A DNA stretch of 64,000 bases from an uncultured Gemmatimonadales bacterium (GTDB taxonomy: Bacteria > Gemmatimonadota > Gemmatimonadetes > Gemmatimonadales > GWC2-71-9), in the NCBI GenBank assembly GCA_963779755.1, contig CAVZZO010000001.1, positions 160,001 to 224,000 on the forward strand. Reading direction: 5' to 3'. Numbering within the stretch: the first letter of the stretch is position 1; each line of letters begins with the position of its first letter. The translations under genes were made by a program, and so were the position numbers. The notes beneath the pieces were generated by a model, which ran no database searches, was not told where the DNA came from, and saw nothing but the letters and a program-made list of their open reading frames with translations. Below are positions 4,777-43,277 of this stretch, one piece after another.

Positions 4777-5307
4777 ATGAACGACGATCTACGTTACCCC
4801 ATCGGCAGGTTCACCCGTCCCGGGCCGCTTACGCCGGCCGATCGGGCGCGATTGATCGACGAGATCGCCCATGCACCCGGGGCGCTGCGCCAGGCGGTGG
4901 ATGGTCTGGATGACCGCCGGCTGGATACGCCGTACCGGCCCGGCGGCTGGACAGTACGCCAGGTGGTGCATCACCTGCCGGACAGCCACCTCAACGCCTA
5001 TACCCGGTTCAAGCTCGGGCTTACCGAGGACGCGCCGACCATCCGTCCCTACGACGAGAGCGCCTGGGCGGAGCTTCCGGAGGCACGGGCCGCGCCTATC
5101 GGGATCTCGCTGGACCTCCTCGATGCACTCCACATCCGCTGGGTGATGATGCTCCGCGGCCTGCACCAGACCGCGTTCGCCCGCAGGATTCTCCATCCCG
5201 AGAGCGGCGAGATGTCGCTCGACGTCCTGCTCGCCCTCTATGCCTGGCACGGCAGGCACCACGTCGCCCATGTGACCGCCCTGCGGGCGCGGGAGGGCTG
5301 GCGCTGA
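4777..5307 (+). CDS. yfiT: YfiT/BstA-like DinB-family metal-dependent thiol transferase
   Basis: DLRYPIG, TPYRPGGWTVRQVVHHLPDSH and YAWHGRHHVAH motifs. Confidence 0.9.
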   Translation: MNDDLRYPIGRFTRPGPLTPADRARLIDEIAHAPGALRQAVDGLDDRRLDTPYRPGGWTVRQVVHHLPDSHLNAYTRFKLGLTEDAPTIRPYDESAWAELPEARAAPIGISLDLLDALHIRWVMMLRGLHQTAFARRILHPESGEMSLDVLLALYAWHGRHHVAHVTALRAREGWR

Positions 5308-7969: not shown

Positions 7970-8041
<72 letters not shown>

Positions 8042-26242: not shown

Positions 26243-26614
26243 ATGCCGAAGGTGATCCTCGTCATAGAAGACGATCCCGCGCAGCGGCGATTGATCGAGG
26301 GAATGCTGGGCGCCTCGGGCTACCGTACCGCGAGTGCTTCCGACGGCGACAGCGGGCTGGCCGCGGCCCGCGCCCGCACTCCAGATTTGATCATCCTCGA
26401 TGTCATGATGCCCGGGCGTAATGGATACCAGACGTGCCGCGCCCTCCGGGCCGAGGAAGCCACCCGGCAGGTCCCGATCCTGATCCTGACCGCCAAGGAA
26501 CAGGAGACCGACCGGTTCTGGGCCGCCCAGGTGGGCTCGTCCGGCTTCCTGCGGAAGCCGGTCGAACCAGCCGAATTGCTGGATGCCGTCGCCGGGCTGC
26601 TGGGCCGGCCGTGA
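26243..26614 (+). CDS. Single-domain response regulator (PilH/CheY-like)
   Basis: EDD, LDVMMP..NGY, LTAK.QETDRFW and KP motifs. Confidence 0.92.
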   Translation: MPKVILVIEDDPAQRRLIEGMLGASGYRTASASDGDSGLAAARARTPDLIILDVMMPGRNGYQTCRALRAEEATRQVPILILTAKEQETDRFWAAQVGSSGFLRKPVEPAELLDAVAGLLGRP

Positions 26615-29600
26615 GCTTTCTCGACGTCATTCTGGTCGCCGCGGCCGCTATCGCGGCGATCGCCATCATCGCCGTACTTACCTGGCTGCTCTACACCAGC
26701 TATCTCAACCGGCTGGAGCACCGGCTCGCGGTCCGCAAGGGATTCTACCGGGACACCGTGGCCGGCATGGCCGCGCGCGACCGCGCGCTGCTGGAACCCG
26801 TGCTGCACCAGATTTCCACCTATCGGGATTTCGAAGCGCTGGAGGCGGTGCTGGAGGAGCAGGCGCGGGGCGCCACCGAACGGCCCGCCTGGCTGCTCGA
26901 CACCTACGACCGGCTCGGGCTGGTGGACAAGTACATCCGCCAGGTGCGGGAAGGCCGGCGCTGGCGCGAACGGGCGTTCGCGGCGGAGTTGCTGGGCCGG
27001 GTCGGGAATGCCAAGGCGGTGGGACCGCTGCTGGAGACGGTCCAGGCAACCCGGGCGGAGGACGCCGATGTGCGGGAGATCGCCTTGCGCGCCCTGGCCC
27101 GCATCGCCGATCCCCGCGCGGTGCCGCCGCTGGCTGAGGCGCTCCGGCGCGCGGAGGTCTGGCTCGCCCCGCGGATCGCGGATATCCTGGCCCGCCACGG
27201 CGAAGTCGTGGTAGACCCGATGATCGCCTTCCTGGAGGAACGAAGCCAGCATCCCGCCCGTGCCTGGGCGGCGAATATCCTGGGCGAAGTCAGGGCGGTG
27301 CGCGCCTTTCCCACCCTGGTCCGTGCGCTGGACGACCTGGACGACGAGGTGCGGGCCAAGTCCGCCACCGCCCTCGGCAAGCTGCACGATCAGCGTGCGA
27401 TCACCTATCTGCTCGATCACCTGCTGACCGACCCCGCGCCCTTTGTCCGGGCGCGCATCGCCAGCGCGCTGGGCCGGTTCAACGACCCCGAGGTCATCGA
27501 TACCCTGGTGCGCGCCCTGGGCGATCCCGCCTGGTGGGTCCGCATGCGCAGCGTCGAAGCCCTGGAGCAGATCGGGGCGGTCGCCGAGGCGCCGCTCATG
27601 CTGGCCCTGGATGACACCGATCCGGAAATCCGCATCCGTGCCGCCGTGGCGCTGGAACGTCTGGGCGTCCCCAACCGGCTGATCGGGCAGATCGAAAGTG
27701 GCACCGCCTCGCCCGAGGTCGGCGAAATCCTTACCAAATTCGGCCTGGCGGGCGCGCGGGAGCTGCTGGCCGAGCAGCTGCAGCACCCCTCTCCGCTGGT
27801 GCGGCGGGCGGTCATTGAAGCCATTCAGCGCGCCGGACGCCGCGACCTCGCTCCGGAGCTCACCCAGGTCGCGCGGCACGACGACGATCCCTCCCTCCGT
27901 GCCTTTGCCTTCGAGACCTTGCGGCACCTGGGGGCCAGCGAAGCCGTGCCCACGGCGCTGGAAGGGCTGGGTGATCCTCATCGGGACGTCCGCACGGCGG
28001 CGATGCGGCTGGTCGGCGATCTGGGCGAGGCGGAGGTGGCCGACATGATCCGCCCTCGCACCACCGACAAGGAACCGGTGGTGCGCGCCGCGGCCGCCCG
28101 CGCACTGGGGCAGCTGCATGCGCGCGATGCCCAGCCCGAGTTGGCGCGGCTGCTGAAAGATCCGGTCCCCGAAGTACGCGCCGCCGCCACCGACGGCGTG
28201 GCGGACAGCAACGGCACCTGGGGCGTCCCCGAGCTGGGGCACCTGCTGGGCGATGCCGATCCCGCCGTGCGAAGCGGCGCGGCCCGGGCGCTCGGCCGGG
28301 TGGGGGACGCTTCCGTGCTGCCCGCCCTGCTGCGCAGCTTTCAGACCGGAACACCCGAGCTGCGCGAAGTCATCGCCGATGCCGTCGCCCGCCTCGACCC
28401 GGCCGCACTGCCGGGCCTGCTCGACGTGCTCATCGCCGCCGGCGACCGGGACTCCCGTCTGGGCGTGGTACGGATTCTCACCGGTATCGACACCCCCGCC
28501 AGCCTCGACCTGCTGGAGGTCGTCTGGCACGACCACAGCCCGGAGGTACGGGCGCTGACGGTGGATGCCCTTGCCCGGCTGGGGAGCGATCGCGCCGCCG
28601 GTCTTCTGGGCCAGGGGCTGCAGGATCCCGATGCCACGGTACGGGCCCGCACGGCCGACGCCCTGGCCCGGCTGGGCCGCGCCGAGTTCGGGCCTGCCCT
28701 GCGTTCCCTGCTGGCCGACGACCCCGCCCCACGCGTGCGGGAGCGGGCCGCCCTGGCGGTGGGCGCCCTGCAGGTCCCCGGCGGCGAGGCAGCCCTGCTC
28801 CACGCCTGCCGGGCGGACGAGCCGCTCTCGGTGCGGGCCGCCGCGGCGCTGGCCGTCGGCGCCTACGATCAGGAGAGCATCGTGGCCCAGGTGGTCGGCA
28901 TGGTAGACGAGGAGCCGGTACGGGAACACCTGCGCGACTGCCTTCGCGATGATCCGGGTTACCGGGTCATTCGCGAGCGGCTGCGCGAGGCGCGGCAGGT
29001 CGAGCTGCGCGCGCTGGGCAGCCTCAACCGCGACCAGATGGAAGCCTCCCTGGTGGAAGGCATGCGCTCGGTGCTCGAGGCCGGTGAGCGGGTGCGCCTG
29101 ATCGGGGCGCTCCACGCCTTCCAGGGCGAGCGCAGCCGGCGCGCCCTGCTGTATTCCGTTCGGAACGACCCCGACCCCGAGGTGCGCGCCGCCGCGCTGA
29201 GCGCGGTGGGCGGGATGCTCGAGGCAGGAGAGCTGGTGCTCACGGCGCGGCGCGCCGTGTCCGACCCCCACCCCGCCGTGCGCCGGGTGGCGGTCACCCT
29301 CTTCTCCCGGGTGCCGCCCGAGGAGGCGCTGCCGGTCCTGATCCGCGTGGTGCGCCCCGGCGACGAGGACCCCGCGCTGCTGCAGACCATCGCCGCGCAT
29401 GCCGAGCAGGCGTTCGATACCTTCGTGGACCTGACCCTGGGATTGGCCCAGTCCGGCCGGGAGGGACTCGTCGTCACCCGCGTGGCGCGCTATATCCATC
29501 ATGCCGGGCTGCGCAATCTGCTGCCGCCGCTGGCCCGGAGTGCGGTGCCGGAAGTGCGGGAAGGACTGGCGCGCCTCTGGTGGCAGCGGCCGGAGCTGGC

Positions 29601-30090
29601 GCAACCCGACGCATTGCGCAACCTGGTCGCCGATCCGGTCACTGCCGTCCGGCGCGAGGCCGTCCGGGCGCTGGCCCTCAATCCCGGCGCCGCCGATCTG
29701 GCGGCCCTGGCAGAGGACCCGGTGGCGGAGATCCGCACCGAGCTGGCGCGGGTGCTCCCGGCGGCATCCGCGGCGCTGGCAGAACTGCGGCGGGATCCGG
29801 TGGAGGCGGTACGCGCCGCCGCCTGGTACAGCGAATTGGGCCGGGGCGGGAGCACGGAGGTCCCGGCGGACGTGTCGCGGGAGGCCCTGGTGGCCGAGGT
29901 CCGCGCCATCGCCGTGCTGGCCGATCTGGTGCGCATCGCCCGGTCGGATCCTGACACGGACCGGCGGCGCGCCGCCGGAGTCGGGCTGGCCCTGCTCCAG
30001 GATCCGGCCGCGCGGCAGGTAGCCTCCGAAGACCCGGCGCCCACGGTGCGGGATGCCGTGCGGCGGTGGCTCGAGGCGGGCCCGGCCTGA
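26611..30090 (+). CDS. Membrane-anchored large HEAT/PBS-lyase repeat protein
   Basis: N-terminal TM helix and more than 20 L.D....VR..A..ALG repeats. GTGA overlap with the upstream gene. Confidence 0.92.
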   Translation: MSFLDVILVAAAAIAAIAIIAVLTWLLYTSYLNRLEHRLAVRKGFYRDTVAGMAARDRALLEPVLHQISTYRDFEALEAVLEEQARGATERPAWLLDTYDRLGLVDKYIRQVREGRRWRERAFAAELLGRVGNAKAVGPLLETVQATRAEDADVREIALRALARIADPRAVPPLAEALRRAEVWLAPRIADILARHGEVVVDPMIAFLEERSQHPARAWAANILGEVRAVRAFPTLVRALDDLDDEVRAKSATALGKLHDQRAITYLLDHLLTDPAPFVRARIASALGRFNDPEVIDTLVRALGDPAWWVRMRSVEALEQIGAVAEAPLMLALDDTDPEIRIRAAVALERLGVPNRLIGQIESGTASPEVGEILTKFGLAGARELLAEQLQHPSPLVRRAVIEAIQRAGRRDLAPELTQVARHDDDPSLRAFAFETLRHLGASEAVPTALEGLGDPHRDVRTAAMRLVGDLGEAEVADMIRPRTTDKEPVVRAAAARALGQLHARDAQPELARLLKDPVPEVRAAATDGVADSNGTWGVPELGHLLGDADPAVRSGAARALGRVGDASVLPALLRSFQTGTPELREVIADAVARLDPAALPGLLDVLIAAGDRDSRLGVVRILTGIDTPASLDLLEVVWHDHSPEVRALTVDALARLGSDRAAGLLGQGLQDPDATVRARTADALARLGRAEFGPALRSLLADDPAPRVRERAALAVGALQVPGGEAALLHACRADEPLSVRAAAALAVGAYDQESIVAQVVGMVDEEPVREHLRDCLRDDPGYRVIRERLREARQVELRALGSLNRDQMEASLVEGMRSVLEAGERVRLIGALHAFQGERSRRALLYSVRNDPDPEVRAAALSAVGGMLEAGELVLTARRAVSDPHPAVRRVAVTLFSRVPPEEALPVLIRVVRPGDEDPALLQTIAAHAEQAFDTFVDLTLGLAQSGREGLVVTRVARYIHHAGLRNLLPPLARSAVPEVREGLARLWWQRPELAQPDALRNLVADPVTAVRREAVRALALNPGAADLAALAEDPVAEIRTELARVLPAASAALAELRRDPVEAVRAAAWYSELGRGGSTEVPADVSREALVAEVRAIAVLADLVRIARSDPDTDRRRAAGVGLALLQDPAARQVASEDPAPTVRDAVRRWLEAGPA

Positions 30091-31667
30091 TGACGCGCGA
30101 GGGACTGATCACGGCACTGGCGATTCTGGGGCTCGTCCTCCAGCCGTTCTTTCTTGTCTACTTCCTGCTCTACAATACCTACACCTTGTCGCTGATCGTG
30201 CTGTCCGCGCGCCAGGTGCGGCGGCGCGTCGCGGGTCACTTTATCGAAGACCTCGACCTCATCGACGAGCACGACTCCACTAAGCCGCTTACCATGGTCG
30301 TCCCCGCCTACAACGAGGAAGTGACCATCGTGGATACGGTCACCAACCTGATCCACTGTGACTACCCCCGCTTCGAAGTGGTGGTAGTGAACGACGGATC
30401 GGGGGATCGTACCCTGGACATGCTCAAGCAGGCGTTCCGTCTGCGGCGGACCGACCTGGCCTACCGTGAGGCCATCGGGACCGCCCGGGTGCGCGCCACC
30501 TACGAGGCGACCATCCCGCTGCCGGCCAGCGTCACCAAGGTCGTGGTCATCGACAAGGAAAACGCGGGCAAGGCCGATGCCCTGAACGCCGGCATCAATG
30601 CCTCCACCGCGCCCTACTTCGTGTCCCTCGATGCCGACTCCATCCTGGACCAGCGGGCGCTCAAGGAGCTCATGCGGGTCATCCAGGAGGATCCCCGGGT
30701 GGTGGCGGTGGGAGGCCAGGTCGCCATCGCCAACGGCTGCGCCATCCGCAACGGCCGGGTCGTGAGCGTGGGGCTACCCACCAGCCCGCTCGCCCGCTTC
30801 CAGATGGTGGAGTACCTCCGGTCCTTTACCACCGGGCGCACCGGGCTCGACCGGCTCGACGCCATCCTGATCCTCTCCGGCGTGTTTGCCGTCTTCGAGA
30901 AGGAGACCGTCATCCGGGCCGGCGGCTATCTCACCCCGTTCGTCACGCATCGCATCGTGGAGGAGTACGTCGGCGGGCGCACCGGTACGGTGTGCGAGGA
31001 CATGGAAATCATCGTGCGGCTGCACCGGTTCGTACGCGACAAGCTGCGCGACAAGCGGGTAGCGTTTCTGCCCCATCCCGTGGCCTGGACCGAGGTCCCC
31101 GAACGCCGCGACTCCCTGCGCAAGCAGCGCGGCCGCTGGTATCGGGGCCTGCGCGAGTCGCTGCTCTACCACCGCCGGATGCTGTTCAACCGGAACTTCG
31201 GCCGCATCGGTTTCTTTGCCCTGCCCACCTTCTGGCTCTTCGAATACTGGGGCCCGGTGATCGAGCTGACGGGCTATTGTTTCGTCGCGCTCTTTCTGCT
31301 GGCCGAATTGGTACTGCACCGCAACTTTCTCAACGAAGCCTATGCGGTGGCCTTCTTCCTGGCCTCGCTGGGCTACGGCATTCTGGTGAATCTGCTGGCG
31401 GTGCTGGTGGGCGCCTGGCGCTTCCGTTTCGGCCTGGCCGATCGCATGCAGCGGGGCCTCCTGCCCTTCAGCCGCCGCCGCGATGTGATGATCCTGCTGC
31501 TCTACGCCGTGCTGGAGAACATCCCGTTCTCCTACCGCCACTGGACTCTGTACTGGCGCATGCGCGGCCTGTGGGACGCCTGGCGGGGCAAGACCACCTG
31601 GGAAAAATTCGCCCGCGTCGGGTTCCGCACCGCCCCCGGCGCGGCGCCGGGCAGCGTCCATGGCTGA
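30090..31667 (+). CDS. Processive GT2 glycosyltransferase (PgaC/IcaA-like)
   Basis: VPAYNEE, NDGS, GKADALN, DAD, ED and QRGRW (D,D,D,QxxRW) motifs; flanking TM helices. Confidence 0.93.
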   Translation: MTREGLITALAILGLVLQPFFLVYFLLYNTYTLSLIVLSARQVRRRVAGHFIEDLDLIDEHDSTKPLTMVVPAYNEEVTIVDTVTNLIHCDYPRFEVVVVNDGSGDRTLDMLKQAFRLRRTDLAYREAIGTARVRATYEATIPLPASVTKVVVIDKENAGKADALNAGINASTAPYFVSLDADSILDQRALKELMRVIQEDPRVVAVGGQVAIANGCAIRNGRVVSVGLPTSPLARFQMVEYLRSFTTGRTGLDRLDAILILSGVFAVFEKETVIRAGGYLTPFVTHRIVEEYVGGRTGTVCEDMEIIVRLHRFVRDKLRDKRVAFLPHPVAWTEVPERRDSLRKQRGRWYRGLRESLLYHRRMLFNRNFGRIGFFALPTFWLFEYWGPVIELTGYCFVALFLLAELVLHRNFLNEAYAVAFFLASLGYGILVNLLAVLVGAWRFRFGLADRMQRGLLPFSRRRDVMILLLYAVLENIPFSYRHWTLYWRMRGLWDAWRGKTTWEKFARVGFRTAPGAAPGSVHG

Positions 31668-39578: not shown

Positions 39579-40001
39579 ATGCGCCGTGGCACTACGCTGA
39601 CCGAGCTTCTGCTGGCCCTCGTCGTCCTGGCGGTTACGGCGGCCCTGGTCGTGCCGAAAGTTGCACCCTGGGTCGACCGTGCCGCGGTCGAACGCAGCGC
39701 CAGAGCCATCGCCAGCGCCCAGACCAGAGCTCGGCTGGAGGCCGCCGCGCGCGGAACCGTTCTCATCATGACGATCGGCACCGACAGTCTCCGACTCGAG
39801 GACCGGCTGGGCGCCAGGCTGTGGCAGGCGCCCGGTCCGGGGGCGGCGAACGTCGCGCTGGCACCGGCCGGTCACCAGGTCACCTACGCTCCCTCGGGAC
39901 TGGCCCTCGGTTTTTCGAATGTTACCCTGCGACTCTCCCGCGGATCGGCTCAGCGCCGGGTGGTCATCTCCCGGATGGGAAGAGTCCGGGTGCTGCCGTG
40001 A
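39579..40001 (+). CDS. Prepilin-type (GspH/FimT-like) pseudopilin
   Basis: MRRG|TTLTELLLALVVL type IV prepilin cleavage motif; C-terminal ISRMGRVR. Confidence 0.88.
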   Translation: MRRGTTLTELLLALVVLAVTAALVVPKVAPWVDRAAVERSARAIASAQTRARLEAAARGTVLIMTIGTDSLRLEDRLGARLWQAPGPGAANVALAPAGHQVTYAPSGLALGFSNVTLRLSRGSAQRRVVISRMGRVRVLP

Positions 40002-40463: not shown

Positions 40464-41441
40464 ATGGATATCATCGACCTCACCCGCCTCGAAGTCGGGC
40501 ACCGGCTGCAGGATCCGCTGCTGGTCCTGGAGATCGACCAGCGCGGTAGCGGGGAGGGCTCCTTTACCGTGCTCACCTTCGGCAACAGCACGGGGCGAAT
40601 CGCCAGCGCGCCCTTCTGGTTTGAAGAACAGCCGCGGGTCGCGGGCGTCGGCCGGGGCGATGTGGTCCAGGTCATCGGCGAGGTAACCACCTACCGCGAC
40701 CGGCGCCAGCTGAAAGTCACCTCGCTCCGCGTATTGCCGCGGGGCAACGTGGATTGGCGGTCCCTGCTCCCCTCGGTGGGCGATACCACCCGCTACTGGG
40801 AGGTGCTCGATCAGTGGCGCCGGGATATCGCCGGCGGCCGCCTGCGGGATACGCTCGCTCTCTTCTACGAGGACGACGACTTCCGCCGCCGGTACGGCGA
40901 ATGCCCCGCCAGCCTGAGCGGGCATCACGCCATGCTGGGCGGTCTGCTCAAGCACACCGCCGAGGTCGCCACCATCGGGCGGGCCATCGCCCGCACCATC
41001 CCGCGCGCCGATCCCGACCTGGTACTGGCCGGCGTGCTGCTGCACGATATCGGCAAGCTGGAATCCTACCGCTGGGAAGGGGTCTTCGAGATGACCGACC
41101 GCGGCGCCCTCTATGGCCACGTCGTGCTGGGCACCCTGATGCTCGAGCGCCGCATCCGGGACTGTCCCGCTCCCCCCTGTGAGCCCGCCGAACTCGATCT
41201 GCTGCACCACCTCATCCTGAGCCACCATGGGAAGCTGGAATTCGGGGCGCCGGTCTCCCCCATGACGCTCGAGGCGGAGATCCTCCATTTTGCCGACAAC
41301 GCCAGCGCCAAGACCACCAGCATGGCCGACGCCCTGGCCGACGGCGAGAATTTCACCGGCGACGGCCTGGTCAGCGCCCGGACCATCTGGCAGCTGGACC
41401 GCCGGAGAGCCTATCGCGGGACGAGCGACTGGGGCCGGTAG
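40464..41441 (+). CDS. yhaM: OB-fold + HD-domain 3'-5' exoribonuclease, YhaM family
   Basis: PAS..HHA..GGLL.HT, LLHDIGK, GH, HLILSHHG..EFG.PV.P...EA.ILH.AD. Confidence 0.88.
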   Translation: MDIIDLTRLEVGHRLQDPLLVLEIDQRGSGEGSFTVLTFGNSTGRIASAPFWFEEQPRVAGVGRGDVVQVIGEVTTYRDRRQLKVTSLRVLPRGNVDWRSLLPSVGDTTRYWEVLDQWRRDIAGGRLRDTLALFYEDDDFRRRYGECPASLSGHHAMLGGLLKHTAEVATIGRAIARTIPRADPDLVLAGVLLHDIGKLESYRWEGVFEMTDRGALYGHVVLGTLMLERRIRDCPAPPCEPAELDLLHHLILSHHGKLEFGAPVSPMTLEAEILHFADNASAKTTSMADALADGENFTGDGLVSARTIWQLDRRRAYRGTSDWGR

Positions 41442-41450
41442 CGAATGCGC

Positions 41451-41531
41451 AAATGTGGATTCACATTCTCCACACGGGTGTGGACAGGGGGCCAAGCTGG
41501 CTTTCCGATCAGCACTTAGCGATCCACATTT
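41451..41531. promoter_or_regulatory. Cluster of four DnaA-box-like motifs
   Basis: TGTGGATTC(41454), TTCTCCACA(41466), TGTGGACAG(41479), CGATCCACA(41520). The outer pair forms a 10-bp inverted repeat. Confidence 0.5.
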
Positions 41532-41572
41532 CTTCCACTTCAAAGCAGCGTAACCCGAATAAATACAGGCAC

Positions 41573-41600
41573 TTGCGCGTTTCCAGCGAGGCCCTATCTT
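41573..41600 (+). promoter_or_regulatory. Sigma70-like promoter for the candidate ncRNA
   Basis: TTGCGC-16 bp-TATCTT with an AT-rich upstream tract. Confidence 0.55.
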
Positions 41601-41606
41601 AGGCTC

Positions 41607-42030
41607 ACGCCGGACGAGATCGCGAGAAATGCCTCCGCGCATGATCGAATGAGCTTCTGGCGGGTCTGGGCGGGATATCGGAGGAGATTGCCGACGCAAC
41701 CAAGGGCTCAGGCAATCGGTGATCCCGGTGGCCACTCCAGTCCAGACCGATAAGGCCAGTCGCGTGCCTTATCCACCCCGATTCAGCGCCTCGGGGTGCA
41801 GTGCGGAAAGTCGGTCCGCGACCCGATTGATCCGCAGCGCCCGCAGTGATGAACCAGGTGGGATGGCCATCCGGCCTGGGGATCGAAGCCGAGGCCTCTG
41901 CAGACCTTACCGCGAGCGTATCAGTTCACGGCGGCAGCAGAGAGAAGAACGGCAGCAAACGCTCCGACCTCGGGTAATCACTGTGCGGGACGGCCGCCTA
42001 GTCTGAGGGCTAGGCGGCCGTTCCATTTCC
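41607..42030 (+). ncRNA. Candidate large structured non-coding RNA of unknown class
   Basis: At least 10 nested or abutting helices, no credible ORF, bounded by a promoter and a terminator. Confidence 0.65.
41987..42030 (+). terminator. Strong hairpin terminator (probably bidirectional)
   Basis: GGGACGGCCGCCTAG-8 nt loop-CTAGGCGGCCGTTCC followed by ATTT. Confidence 0.75.
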
Positions 42031-42057
42031 CCCTCCCCAGGCCTCGCCGCCGCGAGG

Positions 42058-42669
42058 CTATGGCCTTCCGGAATCCTCGCGGGTGGACCTGCGCTTCGGA
42101 GAGTCGAGACCTCCCGCCAGCGGATTGGGCCCGGCGCCGAGCGGCCGCAGGCGGATGTTGATCGCCCGTAATACGTCGTTGGCCGAGGCATCGTACCGGT
42201 GAATCGCGTCCGCCGTCTTGAGCGCGGTGGACACTCCGTAGCCCCGAAGCTCCTCCGACTTGTCCCGATCGGTCCAGGCCGTAAACTTCTGCTGGCACGC
42301 CTTGAGGGAAGTTTCCAGCGCATCCATGTGCCGCCGCAGCATCAGGCGCTGCGGTTCCGGCACGCTGTCCATCAGCGGGGAGCGCAGGAACGATTCCCGC
42401 GTGGAGGGGAGCGTGCGGGAAGCGGCTCCGCACCGCTCCTGCAGTATCCGCGCGCGGGAGGACAGCACGTAGGATGAACTCTGGGAAAGATCGCGCTGCA
42501 GCCGGGCGATCGAGGCGGTGACACCGGCCAGGCTGTCGCGCAGGATCAGGTAGCCGTCCCGGACCGCCGCATGCGGCGGATCGAGCGGCTTCTCCGGCAG
42601 CGCAATGGCCTGGGCGGACAGTGGAACGGGAAGGGCCAGCAGACCCAGCAACAGCAGACGGCGGATCAC
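42058..42669 (-). CDS. Hypothetical secreted helical protein
   Basis: Signal peptide MIRRLLLLGLLALPVPLSA-Q; coupled to the upstream gene. Confidence 0.8.
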   Translation of the reverse strand: MIRRLLLLGLLALPVPLSAQAIALPEKPLDPPHAAVRDGYLILRDSLAGVTASIARLQRDLSQSSSYVLSSRARILQERCGAASRTLPSTRESFLRSPLMDSVPEPQRLMLRRHMDALETSLKACQQKFTAWTDRDKSEELRGYGVSTALKTADAIHRYDASANDVLRAINIRLRPLGAGPNPLAGGLDSPKRRSTREDSGRP

Positions 42670-43277
42670 GATTCCAGTCCCACCTCGATATAGCGGAACG
42701 AAGTCTCTTCACTGCTGGAGGAAAACAGGCACCCCGCCGCACTGGCGGCAAACCAGCCCGCCATCAGGGGGCGCGGACCGTCCAGTTCCTGAACCACCGG
42801 CCCCAGCCACCGCCGGATATGGCGGATCTCCGGAGCCCGCCGGCCCAGCAGCGAAATCAGCGCGCCCGTGCCCGAGGTGGCCCGGAGGAAATGCGCCAGG
42901 CTGTGCGCACGCTGGCTGAACTCCACGACCTTTACGCCCGGCTCGTCGAAGATCACCGCGCCGTCCATGGCATCCATGGGCGGCGCATCCAGCCGCGGCC
43001 CGAGATAGAGGAAGCGGCGGCCGTCTTCTCCTTTGCGCTCGATGACGGCGGCAGCGGTTTCGCTGGTCAGCCGCGCGGCATGCAGCAGGTCGTCATCGAA
43101 CAGGGCTCCGACCGCGTTGGTCCATTCGAGGGCCGCCAGCGCAGTTTCGACCGGGCAGCCCAGTGCCTCGTCGAACGCAAGCAGCCGGGGCGCTTCGCCG
43201 GCACGGAGCAGAAAATGGCTCAGGGCCTCCGCACGGTCGAGCAGCGTCCGGACCACCAGGCTGTTGGGCTGGGTCAT
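42666..43277 (-). CDS. Hypothetical protein with internal duplication (RAEALSHFL / RAHSLAHFL)
   Basis: ORF with typical codon usage; start placed at MTQPNS. Confidence 0.75.
   Translation of the reverse strand: MTQPNSLVVRTLLDRAEALSHFLLRAGEAPRLLAFDEALGCPVETALAALEWTNAVGALFDDDLLHAARLTSETAAAVIERKGEDGRRFLYLGPRLDAPPMDAMDGAVIFDEPGVKVVEFSQRAHSLAHFLRATSGTGALISLLGRRAPEIRHIRRWLGPVVQELDGPRPLMAGWFAASAAGCLFSSSSEETSFRYIEVGLES

Follow-up and report, generated by a model that had tools for sequence, protein, structure and literature searches.

Large, highly structured bacterial RNAs such as RNase P RNA, transfer-messenger RNA (tmRNA), OLE, ROOL, GOLLD, and raiA have each been the start of new biochemistry or structural biology, and to our knowledge new classes of this kind are now seldom found. 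Here, we analyze a candidate RNA gene from the soil phylum Gemmatimonadota, of which very few members have been cultured. The gene lies in a 64,000-nucleotide stretch of DNA (the window; positions 160,001 to 224,000 of contig CAVZZO010000001.1, assembly GCA_963779755.1) from an uncultured Gemmatimonadales bacterium, where it occupies the intergenic interval 41442-42057 between a forward-strand gene encoding HD and OB-fold domains (the HD gene) and a convergent gene on the reverse strand. The closest described systems are the orphan large RNAs raiA motif RNA, OLE, ROOL, and GOLLD. Like these, the candidate appears to be a stand-alone gene of a few hundred nucleotides (nt), is rich in covarying helices and candidate pseudoknots, occurs in a narrow range of taxa, and has no biochemical function assigned to it. 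Some orphan large bacterial RNAs self-associate, and the palindromic loop hexamers of the candidate would permit the same. In contrast to these RNAs, it matches no Rfam model, comes from another phylum, and combines a three-hairpin core with optional flanking domains and a conserved array of upstream boxes.

Three further systems invite comparison. Type A RNase P RNA likewise comprises about 400 nt, with a conserved core, a lineage-variable periphery, long-range helices, its own promoter, and, as for the candidate in this window, a single copy; the new RNA differs from it in lacking a long-range P4 helix (a GGAAAGUC-like string pairs locally instead), in having natural forms of only ~190 nt, and in being confined, as far as seen, to one order. 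The 6S RNA and the actinobacterial Ms1 RNA resemble the candidate in being stand-alone, sigma-70-driven, and terminator-ended, and by analogy the candidate may also act through a protein-binding shape rather than a seed; however, it has no Rfam match, and its consensus fold strings together local hairpins and multi-helix domains instead of forming a rod with a central bubble. Finally, loop-locked riboswitch aptamers (cobalamin, cyclic di-GMP-II) share a compact core of ~95 nt, invariant loops, and kissing-loop or pseudoknot pairings, which in the new RNA are candidates. Unlike them, it comes with a promoter of its own and a strong terminator, matches no riboswitch model, and is followed by no co-oriented gene in any of 22 copies.

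Homologues, covariation, and fold of the RNA

An alignment of 30 homologues of the HD protein was used to scan species-representative genomes, which yielded 80 loci, of which 38 belong to Gemmatimonadota and 42 to other phyla. Searches with the intergenic stretch (nhmmer and blastn) returned near-full-length matches with 67-78% nucleotide identity at 18 loci and partial matches at three more, almost all of them immediately past the HD gene. The covariance model built for the core recognizes 22 copies, one in the window and the others at 21 of the 38 Gemmatimonadota loci (68-215 bits), and matches none of the 42 loci of other phyla. Among the 17 Gemmatimonadota loci without a match, six carry fewer than 350 nt after the HD gene and are not judgeable, and 11 carry at least 600 nt and lack the RNA; a cmsearch with filters off over these 11 and the short locus L005 found nothing above noise, the top score being 17.6 bits (E = 0.046) for a match within the HD gene. 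Because of the 11 loci with ample downstream sequence, the link to the HD gene is positional, not obligatory. The preliminary description of this locus, made from the sequence alone, had placed the RNA downstream of a YhaM-type gene; it does adjoin that gene in the window, but the link goes no further than position, and the RNA of the other genomes converges on the HD gene.

Both folding energy and covariation, two of the checks named in that description, speak for a structured RNA. The forward strand of 41600-42030 folds at -208.9 kcal/mol, compared with -177.1 kcal/mol (standard deviation 6.5) for dinucleotide shuffles (z = -4.88; none of 100 shuffles as good). On the reverse strand z is only -1.69, with 5 of 100 shuffles as good, and the excess of structure is therefore real and strand-specific. 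We then examined the pairing in A3, an alignment of 15 transcript sequences with a mean column identity of 77%, for which RNAalifold predicts a consensus of 117 pairs in 19 helices and three domains. At least one compensatory double change is seen in 61 of the 117 pairs. In this alignment, 96.7% of 1750 cells are paired, compared with 88.2% in column shuffles, and 164 cells are compensatory, compared with 47.8; none of the five measures used was reached by any of 500 shuffles. When the 3' partners were slid by one to three columns, pairing fell to 33-45% and the compensatory pairs to 7-16. Similar values were obtained with the 22-sequence core alignment A5, which was fitted to the covariance model and hence leans towards it (96.2% of cells paired and compensatory changes in 30 of 53 pairs, which none of 500 shuffles matched). 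Slid controls across A3 and A5 pair at 24-45%. Helices are thus preserved across species by compensatory changes, as befits a structured RNA. The strand is fixed as well: G-U cells far outnumber A-C cells (193 vs 23), so the RNA is read from the forward strand, and the opposite-strand reading would pair 87.0% of cells.

Ten internal helices had been proposed from the window sequence, and nine of them, as well as the terminal hairpin, match helices of the 15-sequence consensus. Covariation is seen in GGTCTGG/CCAGACC, GATAAGGC/GCCTTATC, CACCCCGA/TCGGGGTG, CCGAGG/CCTCGG, and TGCGGA/TCCGCA together with its inner helix, and it extends to every pair of GATTGCC/GGCAATC (7/7), of CTCTGC/GCAGAG (5/5), and of the inner part of GCAGTGAT/ATCACTGT (6/6). 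The CCAGG/CCTGG helix is mostly invariant. In the terminal hairpin (A3 helix 19), 10 of 14 pairs covary and 99.5% of cells are paired. The tenth proposal, CGGGAT (41671) with ATCCCG (41722), did not hold: 85.6% of its cells pair, it scores no better than its own -1 slide, and it is displaced by a competing pairing of A3 columns 80-83 with 127-130 (98.3% paired; three of four pairs covarying).

The three hairpins A, B, and C form a block of ~95 nt that is common to all 22 copies and has invariant loops (see Table 1 for coordinates). Around this block, the peripheral domains are present, swapped, or absent depending on the lineage, which identifies it as the universal core. For example, domain III is replaced by a short hairpin, or by a straight run into the terminator, in L033, L006, L010, and L003. 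The loci L019, L025, and L027 go further and carry natural forms of ~190 nt, in which both domains I and III are absent and hairpins A-C are followed only by one further hairpin and the terminator; here, hairpin A starts a few nucleotides past the predicted transcript start. In the rows of these three loci, the model misaligned promoter sequence to helix 1.

Two candidate tertiary pairings involve the invariant core loops. Loop A (41759-64) could kiss loop C (41817-22) through six pairs, with 99.2% of 132 cells paired and a single pair change, from G-C to U-G, in three related reduced forms. The GCGC of loop B (41786-89) could in turn pair with the GCGC that follows hairpin C (41837-40); all 88 cells of these four pairs are paired, and one C-G to U-A change occurs in L026, the sole sequence that varies in those columns, where it disrupts the alternative nested pair used by the model. 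As each rests on a single evolutionary event, we treat both pairings as hypotheses. The hexamer UGGCCA occurs twice in the RNA, at 41864-69 in the loop of hairpin P8, where GGCCA is invariant, and at 41731-36 inside domain I, where most homologues have UGAUCA. Judging from these palindromes, either site could allow the RNA to self-associate or, in this copy, to form an intramolecular contact.

No described RNA family accounts for this fold, in line with the earlier remark that signatures of RNase P RNA, tmRNA, and signal recognition particle (SRP) RNA were not seen. At gathering thresholds, the 4227 models of Rfam 15 match nothing in the whole window except a tRNA at 7970-8041 (reverse strand, 68.5 bits, anticodon read as GCA for cysteine). 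Lowering the threshold to E <= 10 for 41300-42200 gave eight weak and short matches, mostly to the terminator hairpin, with a best score of 19.2 bits against a gathering threshold of 40, and left the body of the RNA uncovered. At seven homologue loci, no Rfam model matches the RNA at E <= 1, and ARAGORN finds no tRNA or tmRNA gene in 41000-42500. We therefore rejected tmRNA (nothing from ARAGORN, no Rfam tmRNA match, no conserved open reading frame), type A RNase P RNA (no RF00010 match, and a single CR-I-like string, at 41806-15, that pairs locally in covarying hairpin C), and 6S RNA (no RF00013 match, and 19 helices in three domains instead of a rod). The sole end-to-end pairing is a weak five-pair helix that is 81% paired and uses the terminator tail.

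In full-text literature searches, we found no paper that pairs words beginning with Gemmatimonad with structured RNA. A term look-up within the main text of the RNA-discovery papers PMC5737381, PMC11109978, and bioRxiv 10.64898/2026.10.21.760802 returned no occurrence of words beginning with Gemmatimon. Rfam also gave sub-threshold matches to the cspA thermoregulator (32-34 bits; gathering threshold 78) downstream of ogt at three loci (L013 6907-7300, L016 6291-6580, and L003 6754-7092), which probably mark a cold-shock gene and its leader.

Putative promoter and terminator, and orientation of the cassette

The RNA is preceded by a putative sigma-70-type promoter and closed by a predicted intrinsic terminator (Table 1). 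Both had been proposed from the window sequence, and both are borne out by the homologues. The hexamers TTGCGC and TATCTT match the consensus at only 8 of 12 positions; across the 19-sequence alignment A2, however, they fall on columns (TTG and TAnnTT) that are invariant, and the spacer between them is conserved in length and variable in sequence. The closing hairpin, originally given as 15 bp, corresponds to 14 consensus pairs, of which 10 are compensatory, and in L026 its stem is wholly different in sequence. The closest homologue, L030, contains a partial copy of one terminator arm (5099-5116 and 5166-5183) between the HD gene and the RNA terminator. Between the stop codon of the HD gene and the RNA promoter, the window has no terminator, so read-through from the HD gene is possible. 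The conserved element just upstream of the -35 hexamer could be either an UP-like element or an activator site.

Further upstream, 60-150 nt before the RNA start, lies an array of TGTGGA/TCCACA half-sites. Its first element, TGTGGATTCACA, has the consensus TGTGGA.TCCACA across homologues and is followed by TCCACA-N3/4-TGTGGA and, ~40 nt beyond, by ATCCACAT. The 12-mer TGTGGATNCACA occurs in 12 of the 80 loci, once each and always upstream of the RNA, and TCCACA-N4-TGTGGA has one mismatch-free occurrence in the 64-kb window. In several species, the conserved TGTGGAT/ATCCACA boxes match the DnaA box consensus at 7-8 of 9 positions, with (G/C)TATCCACA at 8 of 9, a resemblance that we regard as a lead. 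Cumulative GC skew has a shallow minimum at ~44-48 kb of the window, which is weak and shows no sharp switch. Given this and the lack of replication genes nearby, we consider a replication origin unlikely.

The strongest case for a separate gene came, unexpectedly, from orientation, which differs between the window and all other loci. In 21 of 21 other loci, the RNA lies on the strand opposite the HD gene, converges on it, and shares its direction with the genes at its other end. The complete cassette of boxes, promoter, RNA, and terminator is inverted in the window relative to these loci, whereas the flanking genes keep their order and strands. We found no inverted repeats flanking the inverted cassette and for this reason rejected a site-specific invertible element; from the sequences compared, we read the inversion as a lineage-specific rearrangement. 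Because the cassette stands in either orientation between the same neighbours, the RNA is neither a leader nor a 3' untranslated region (UTR), and the inversion implies an independent transcription unit. A convergent gene lies downstream in the window and in the 21 other loci, which extends the original argument, drawn from the window, that the RNA is not a 5' leader. No co-oriented gene follows the RNA in either arrangement, and thus the gene immediately downstream that a riboswitch or 5' leader would control is missing. As far as sequence can tell, the RNA is served by a promoter and a terminator of its own, both on the structured strand, and is independent of its neighbours.

Proposed role and alternative explanations

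Taken together, these data indicate that the locus is probably a free-standing gene for a member of an undescribed family of structured non-coding RNAs, so far found only in Gemmatimonadales, with a core that may be locked, control that would run through the upstream boxes, and a proposed action in trans. The preliminary description had reached a similar view (a stand-alone large non-coding RNA of no assigned class), which is now supported by the conserved promoter, the covarying terminator, the inversion of the cassette, the lack of an Rfam family, the strong conservation and covariation, the folding excess, and the lack of conserved coding in 41719-42006. In the mechanism that we propose, transcription would start at the conserved sigma-70-type promoter and end at the covarying GC-rich hairpin. 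The core might be locked by the six-pair kissing of loops A and C and by the four-pair pseudoknot that joins loop B to the sequence 3' of hairpin C, and expression may be controlled by a protein that binds the TGTGGA/TCCACA array. Tertiary structure would then underlie an action in trans, in which the RNA partners or scaffolds a protein or ligand or possibly serves as a catalyst; it would not work as a base-pairing small RNA (sRNA) or a cis-regulatory leader. We favour a trans-acting, shape-based RNA because an invariant-loop, pseudoknotted core with a variable periphery is the pattern of ribozymes, ribonucleoprotein (RNP) subunits, and aptamers, and not that of sRNAs that pair through a seed.

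Several points weigh against this interpretation. We infer the transcript, its ends, and its abundance from sequence, and the functional part is our best guess, a judgement from architecture by analogy with other RNAs. A simple consensus scan of 41000-42600 called neither promoter nor terminator, and the U tract of this copy is poor (AUUUCC, where most homologues have GUUUUU). The other genomes were examined over only ~4 kb on either side of one marker gene, the HD gene. The aligned sequences are close relatives (77% mean column identity), which inflates shuffle-based statistics; slid controls preserve this relatedness and thus argue that the pairing is not an artefact of kinship. Each pseudoknot is supported by one evolutionary event among otherwise invariant columns, and for the kissing loop, 173 of 500 shuffles scored as high in the number of pairs changed on both sides. 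Finally, the 7-mer WTCCACA is not enriched across the window (7 found vs 7.2 expected).

A bolder version of the proposal, which we regard as unlikely, would make the ~95-nt doubly pseudoknotted core the active module of a new RNA class, which would be a ribozyme or would serve a dedicated RNP as RNA subunit or sensor. Through the DnaA-box-like array, the cell would couple production of the RNA to the state of replication or DNA damage, and the palindromic loops of the outer domains would drive self-assembly into an RNA particle. The newness of the RNA consists in its belonging to no described RNA family. For work at the bench, the candidate offers a start in the form of predicted ends, a covariation-backed structure, a minimal natural form of ~190 nt, two candidate tertiary contacts, and a candidate operator.

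Among other explanations, a riboswitch-like ligand sensor seems quite improbable to us. The A-B-C core would serve as aptamer, and the terminator as an expression platform gating antisense read-through into the convergent gene. In size and complexity, the ~95-nt core with its invariant loops and two candidate pseudoknots resembles an aptamer, and a convergent gene does lie just past the terminator in 22 of 22 copies; however, this gene is the HD gene in 21 copies and the gene at 42058-42669 in the window, so that the target changes with the inversion and no single antisense target is conserved. In domain III, a conserved GAACGGCRGC stretch shows 90% complementarity to the 3' terminator arm, but this candidate competitor strand is occupied in a hairpin that itself covaries (A3 helix 18), and we set aside an antiterminator pairing for that reason. 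Moreover, several lineages have no domain III, the terminator is a very stable stem of 14-15 pairs without a conserved competitor, and the RNA gene has its own elaborate upstream control region.

We give just as little credence to a base-pairing sRNA, or an sRNA derived from the 3' UTR of the upstream 203-aa gene (42666-43277), that acts on mRNAs through a short conserved seed. In 20 of the 21 other loci, the RNA is indeed directly downstream of and co-oriented with this conserved gene, either alone or together with a signal-peptide gene; it ends, as most sRNAs do, in an intrinsic terminator, and its loop B contains an invariant GCGCC that might serve as a seed. Against this stand its own invariant promoter and the inversion that turns it away from the same gene in the window. 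A length of 190-420 nt with 117 mostly covarying pairs also exceeds that of a typical sRNA, and the invariant loops are taken up by candidate intramolecular pairings.

A divergent universal RNA (RNase P RNA, tmRNA, 6S, or SRP RNA) that the Rfam models miss in this phylum is very unlikely. The ~420-nt length and the domain organization resemble RNase P RNA, the string GGAAAGUCGG (41806-15) is superficially similar to the CR-I motif, and the Rfam 6S model is one that misses divergent members. However, the only listed match to such an RNA at E <= 10 is a truncated RNase P model with 12.2 bits, on the reverse strand over the terminator hairpin, and neither the seven homologue loci nor ARAGORN add a further one. 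The GGAAAGUC string sits in a local covarying hairpin and not in a long-range P4, the ends do not form a 6S-like rod, and the ~190-nt forms do without most of the molecule. Finally, a DNA-level element, in which a cluster of DnaA-type boxes and the adjacent structured region would serve replication control or chromosome organization and the folds would be incidental, could draw on the four or five conserved TGTGGA/TCCACA boxes and the shallow skew minimum, but is hardly credible given that G-U is tolerated and A-C is not, which is sensible only for a one-strand RNA, that promoter and terminator lie on the same strand as the structure, and that the skew is weak and replication genes are lacking nearby.

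Feature coordinates and neighbouring genes

Table 1. Features of the RNA locus and its neighbours (positions in the window)
Feature	Position	Strand	Remarks
HD + OB-fold gene, YhaM-like	40464..41441	+	Pfam HD 1e-14; 325 aa by homologues
TGTGGA/TCCACA half-site array: near-palindrome TGTGGATTCACA, then TCCACA-N4-TGTGGA	41451..41485	.	Columns nearly invariant in alignment A2 (19 sequences)
Fourth box GATCCACATTT	41520..41531	.	Perfect 10-nt inverted copy of 41451-41460; TC.ACA columns invariant
Conserved element GCGTAACCCGAATAAATACAGGCA just upstream of -35	41549..41572	+	TAA.CCGAA..AA....GGC invariant in 19 sequences; kept in reduced forms
Putative sigma-70-type promoter	41573..41600	+	-35 TTGCGC 41573-78, 16-nt spacer, -10 TATCTT 41595-41600; TTG and TAnnTT columns invariant
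Predicted RNA transcript, ~424 nt	41607..42030	+	Start placed from the -10 position, end from the terminator
Variable 5' leader hairpin region	41608..41662	+	Poorly conserved, no supported consensus helix; missing in reduced forms
Domain I (optional): long stem GGUCUGG/CCAGACC, internal helices, conserved apical loop	41663..41748	+	A5 helices 1-4: 23 pairs, 19 compensatory; missing in L019, L025, L027
Core hairpin A (GAUAAGGC/GCCUUAUC), loop GUCGCG 41759-64	41749..41773	+	A5 helix 5: 9 pairs, 4 compensatory, 97.5% paired
Core hairpin B (CACCCCGA/UCGGGGUG), loop GCGC 41786-89	41774..41798	+	A5 helix 6: 7 pairs, 3 compensatory, 98.1% paired
Core hairpin C, two-tier stem 41802-36, loop CGCGAC 41817-22, then GCGC 41837-40	41802..41840	+	A5 helices 7-8
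Domain III (optional): long-range stem around hairpin P8 (41854-79, loop UGGCCA) and multi-helix junction, conserved purine run GAGAAGAACGG	41843..41984	+	A3 helices 10-18
Predicted intrinsic terminator, arms 41987-42001 and 42010-42024 (15 nt), tail AUUUCC	41987..42030	+	Arms 93% complementary; stem covaries
Convergent 203-aa gene	42058..42669	-	N-terminus signal-peptide-like; GC3 0.80; tblastn match in 5/21 RNA-bearing loci
Conserved 203-aa gene	42666..43277	-	In most other genomes directly upstream of the RNA, same orientation

The preliminary description saw no credible open reading frame (ORF) in the interval, and this view holds. The flanking genes have a GC content at third codon positions (GC3) of 0.80-0.86, whereas codon-position GC bias is absent across 41442-42057. 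The 95-codon ORF at 41719-42006 is not conserved: among 14 homologous rows, nine have a length change that is not a multiple of three and nine have in-frame stops. Protein coding is ruled out by this combination of missing GC3 bias with frameshifts and stops in the homologues. ORF length by itself is unreliable in this genome of 68% GC, as seen at 26320-30108, where a forward-strand ORF of 1218 aa with HEAT repeats lies opposite an antisense ORF of ~1100-1260 codons whose GC3 is just as high (0.83). We also compared the interval with plasmid and phage collections by blastn and found no similar DNA; in view of this and of the ordinary chromosomal gene context, we rejected a mobile or plasmid/phage origin.

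Of the two 203-aa proteins encoded on the reverse strand beyond the terminator, the nearer one has no Pfam or NCBIfam match. The product of 42666-43277 is 74-83% identical to 119 other Gemmatimonadales clusters among the matches listed, which exceeds the conservation of the HD protein. By tblastn, it is found at 20 of the 21 loci that carry the RNA and at none of the 17 without an RNA match, a co-occurrence that is confounded by synteny. It belongs to no Pfam or NCBIfam family, and a Foldseek search against the PDB gave nothing at E <= 0.001, with template modelling (TM) scores of at most 0.22 among the matches listed. Its AlphaFold2 model is poor (mean predicted local distance difference test score 61.3), and its protein language-model look-alikes score only 0.85, so that their SUKH/SMI1 label is a lead at most. 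As a route to the function of the RNA, this neighbour proved a dead end, with neither a family nor a fold match.

The HD/OB protein scores 118.6 bits against the NCBIfam YhaM model, well below the model cut-off of 460, and is therefore termed YhaM-like. Its homologues are 65-88% identical, and those with names belong to Gemmatimonadales. Just upstream of its gene lies a small pilin-like gene (39579-40001, forward strand) with a GspH domain and an N-terminal methylation motif, for which tblastn finds matches in 24 of the 38 Gemmatimonadota loci.

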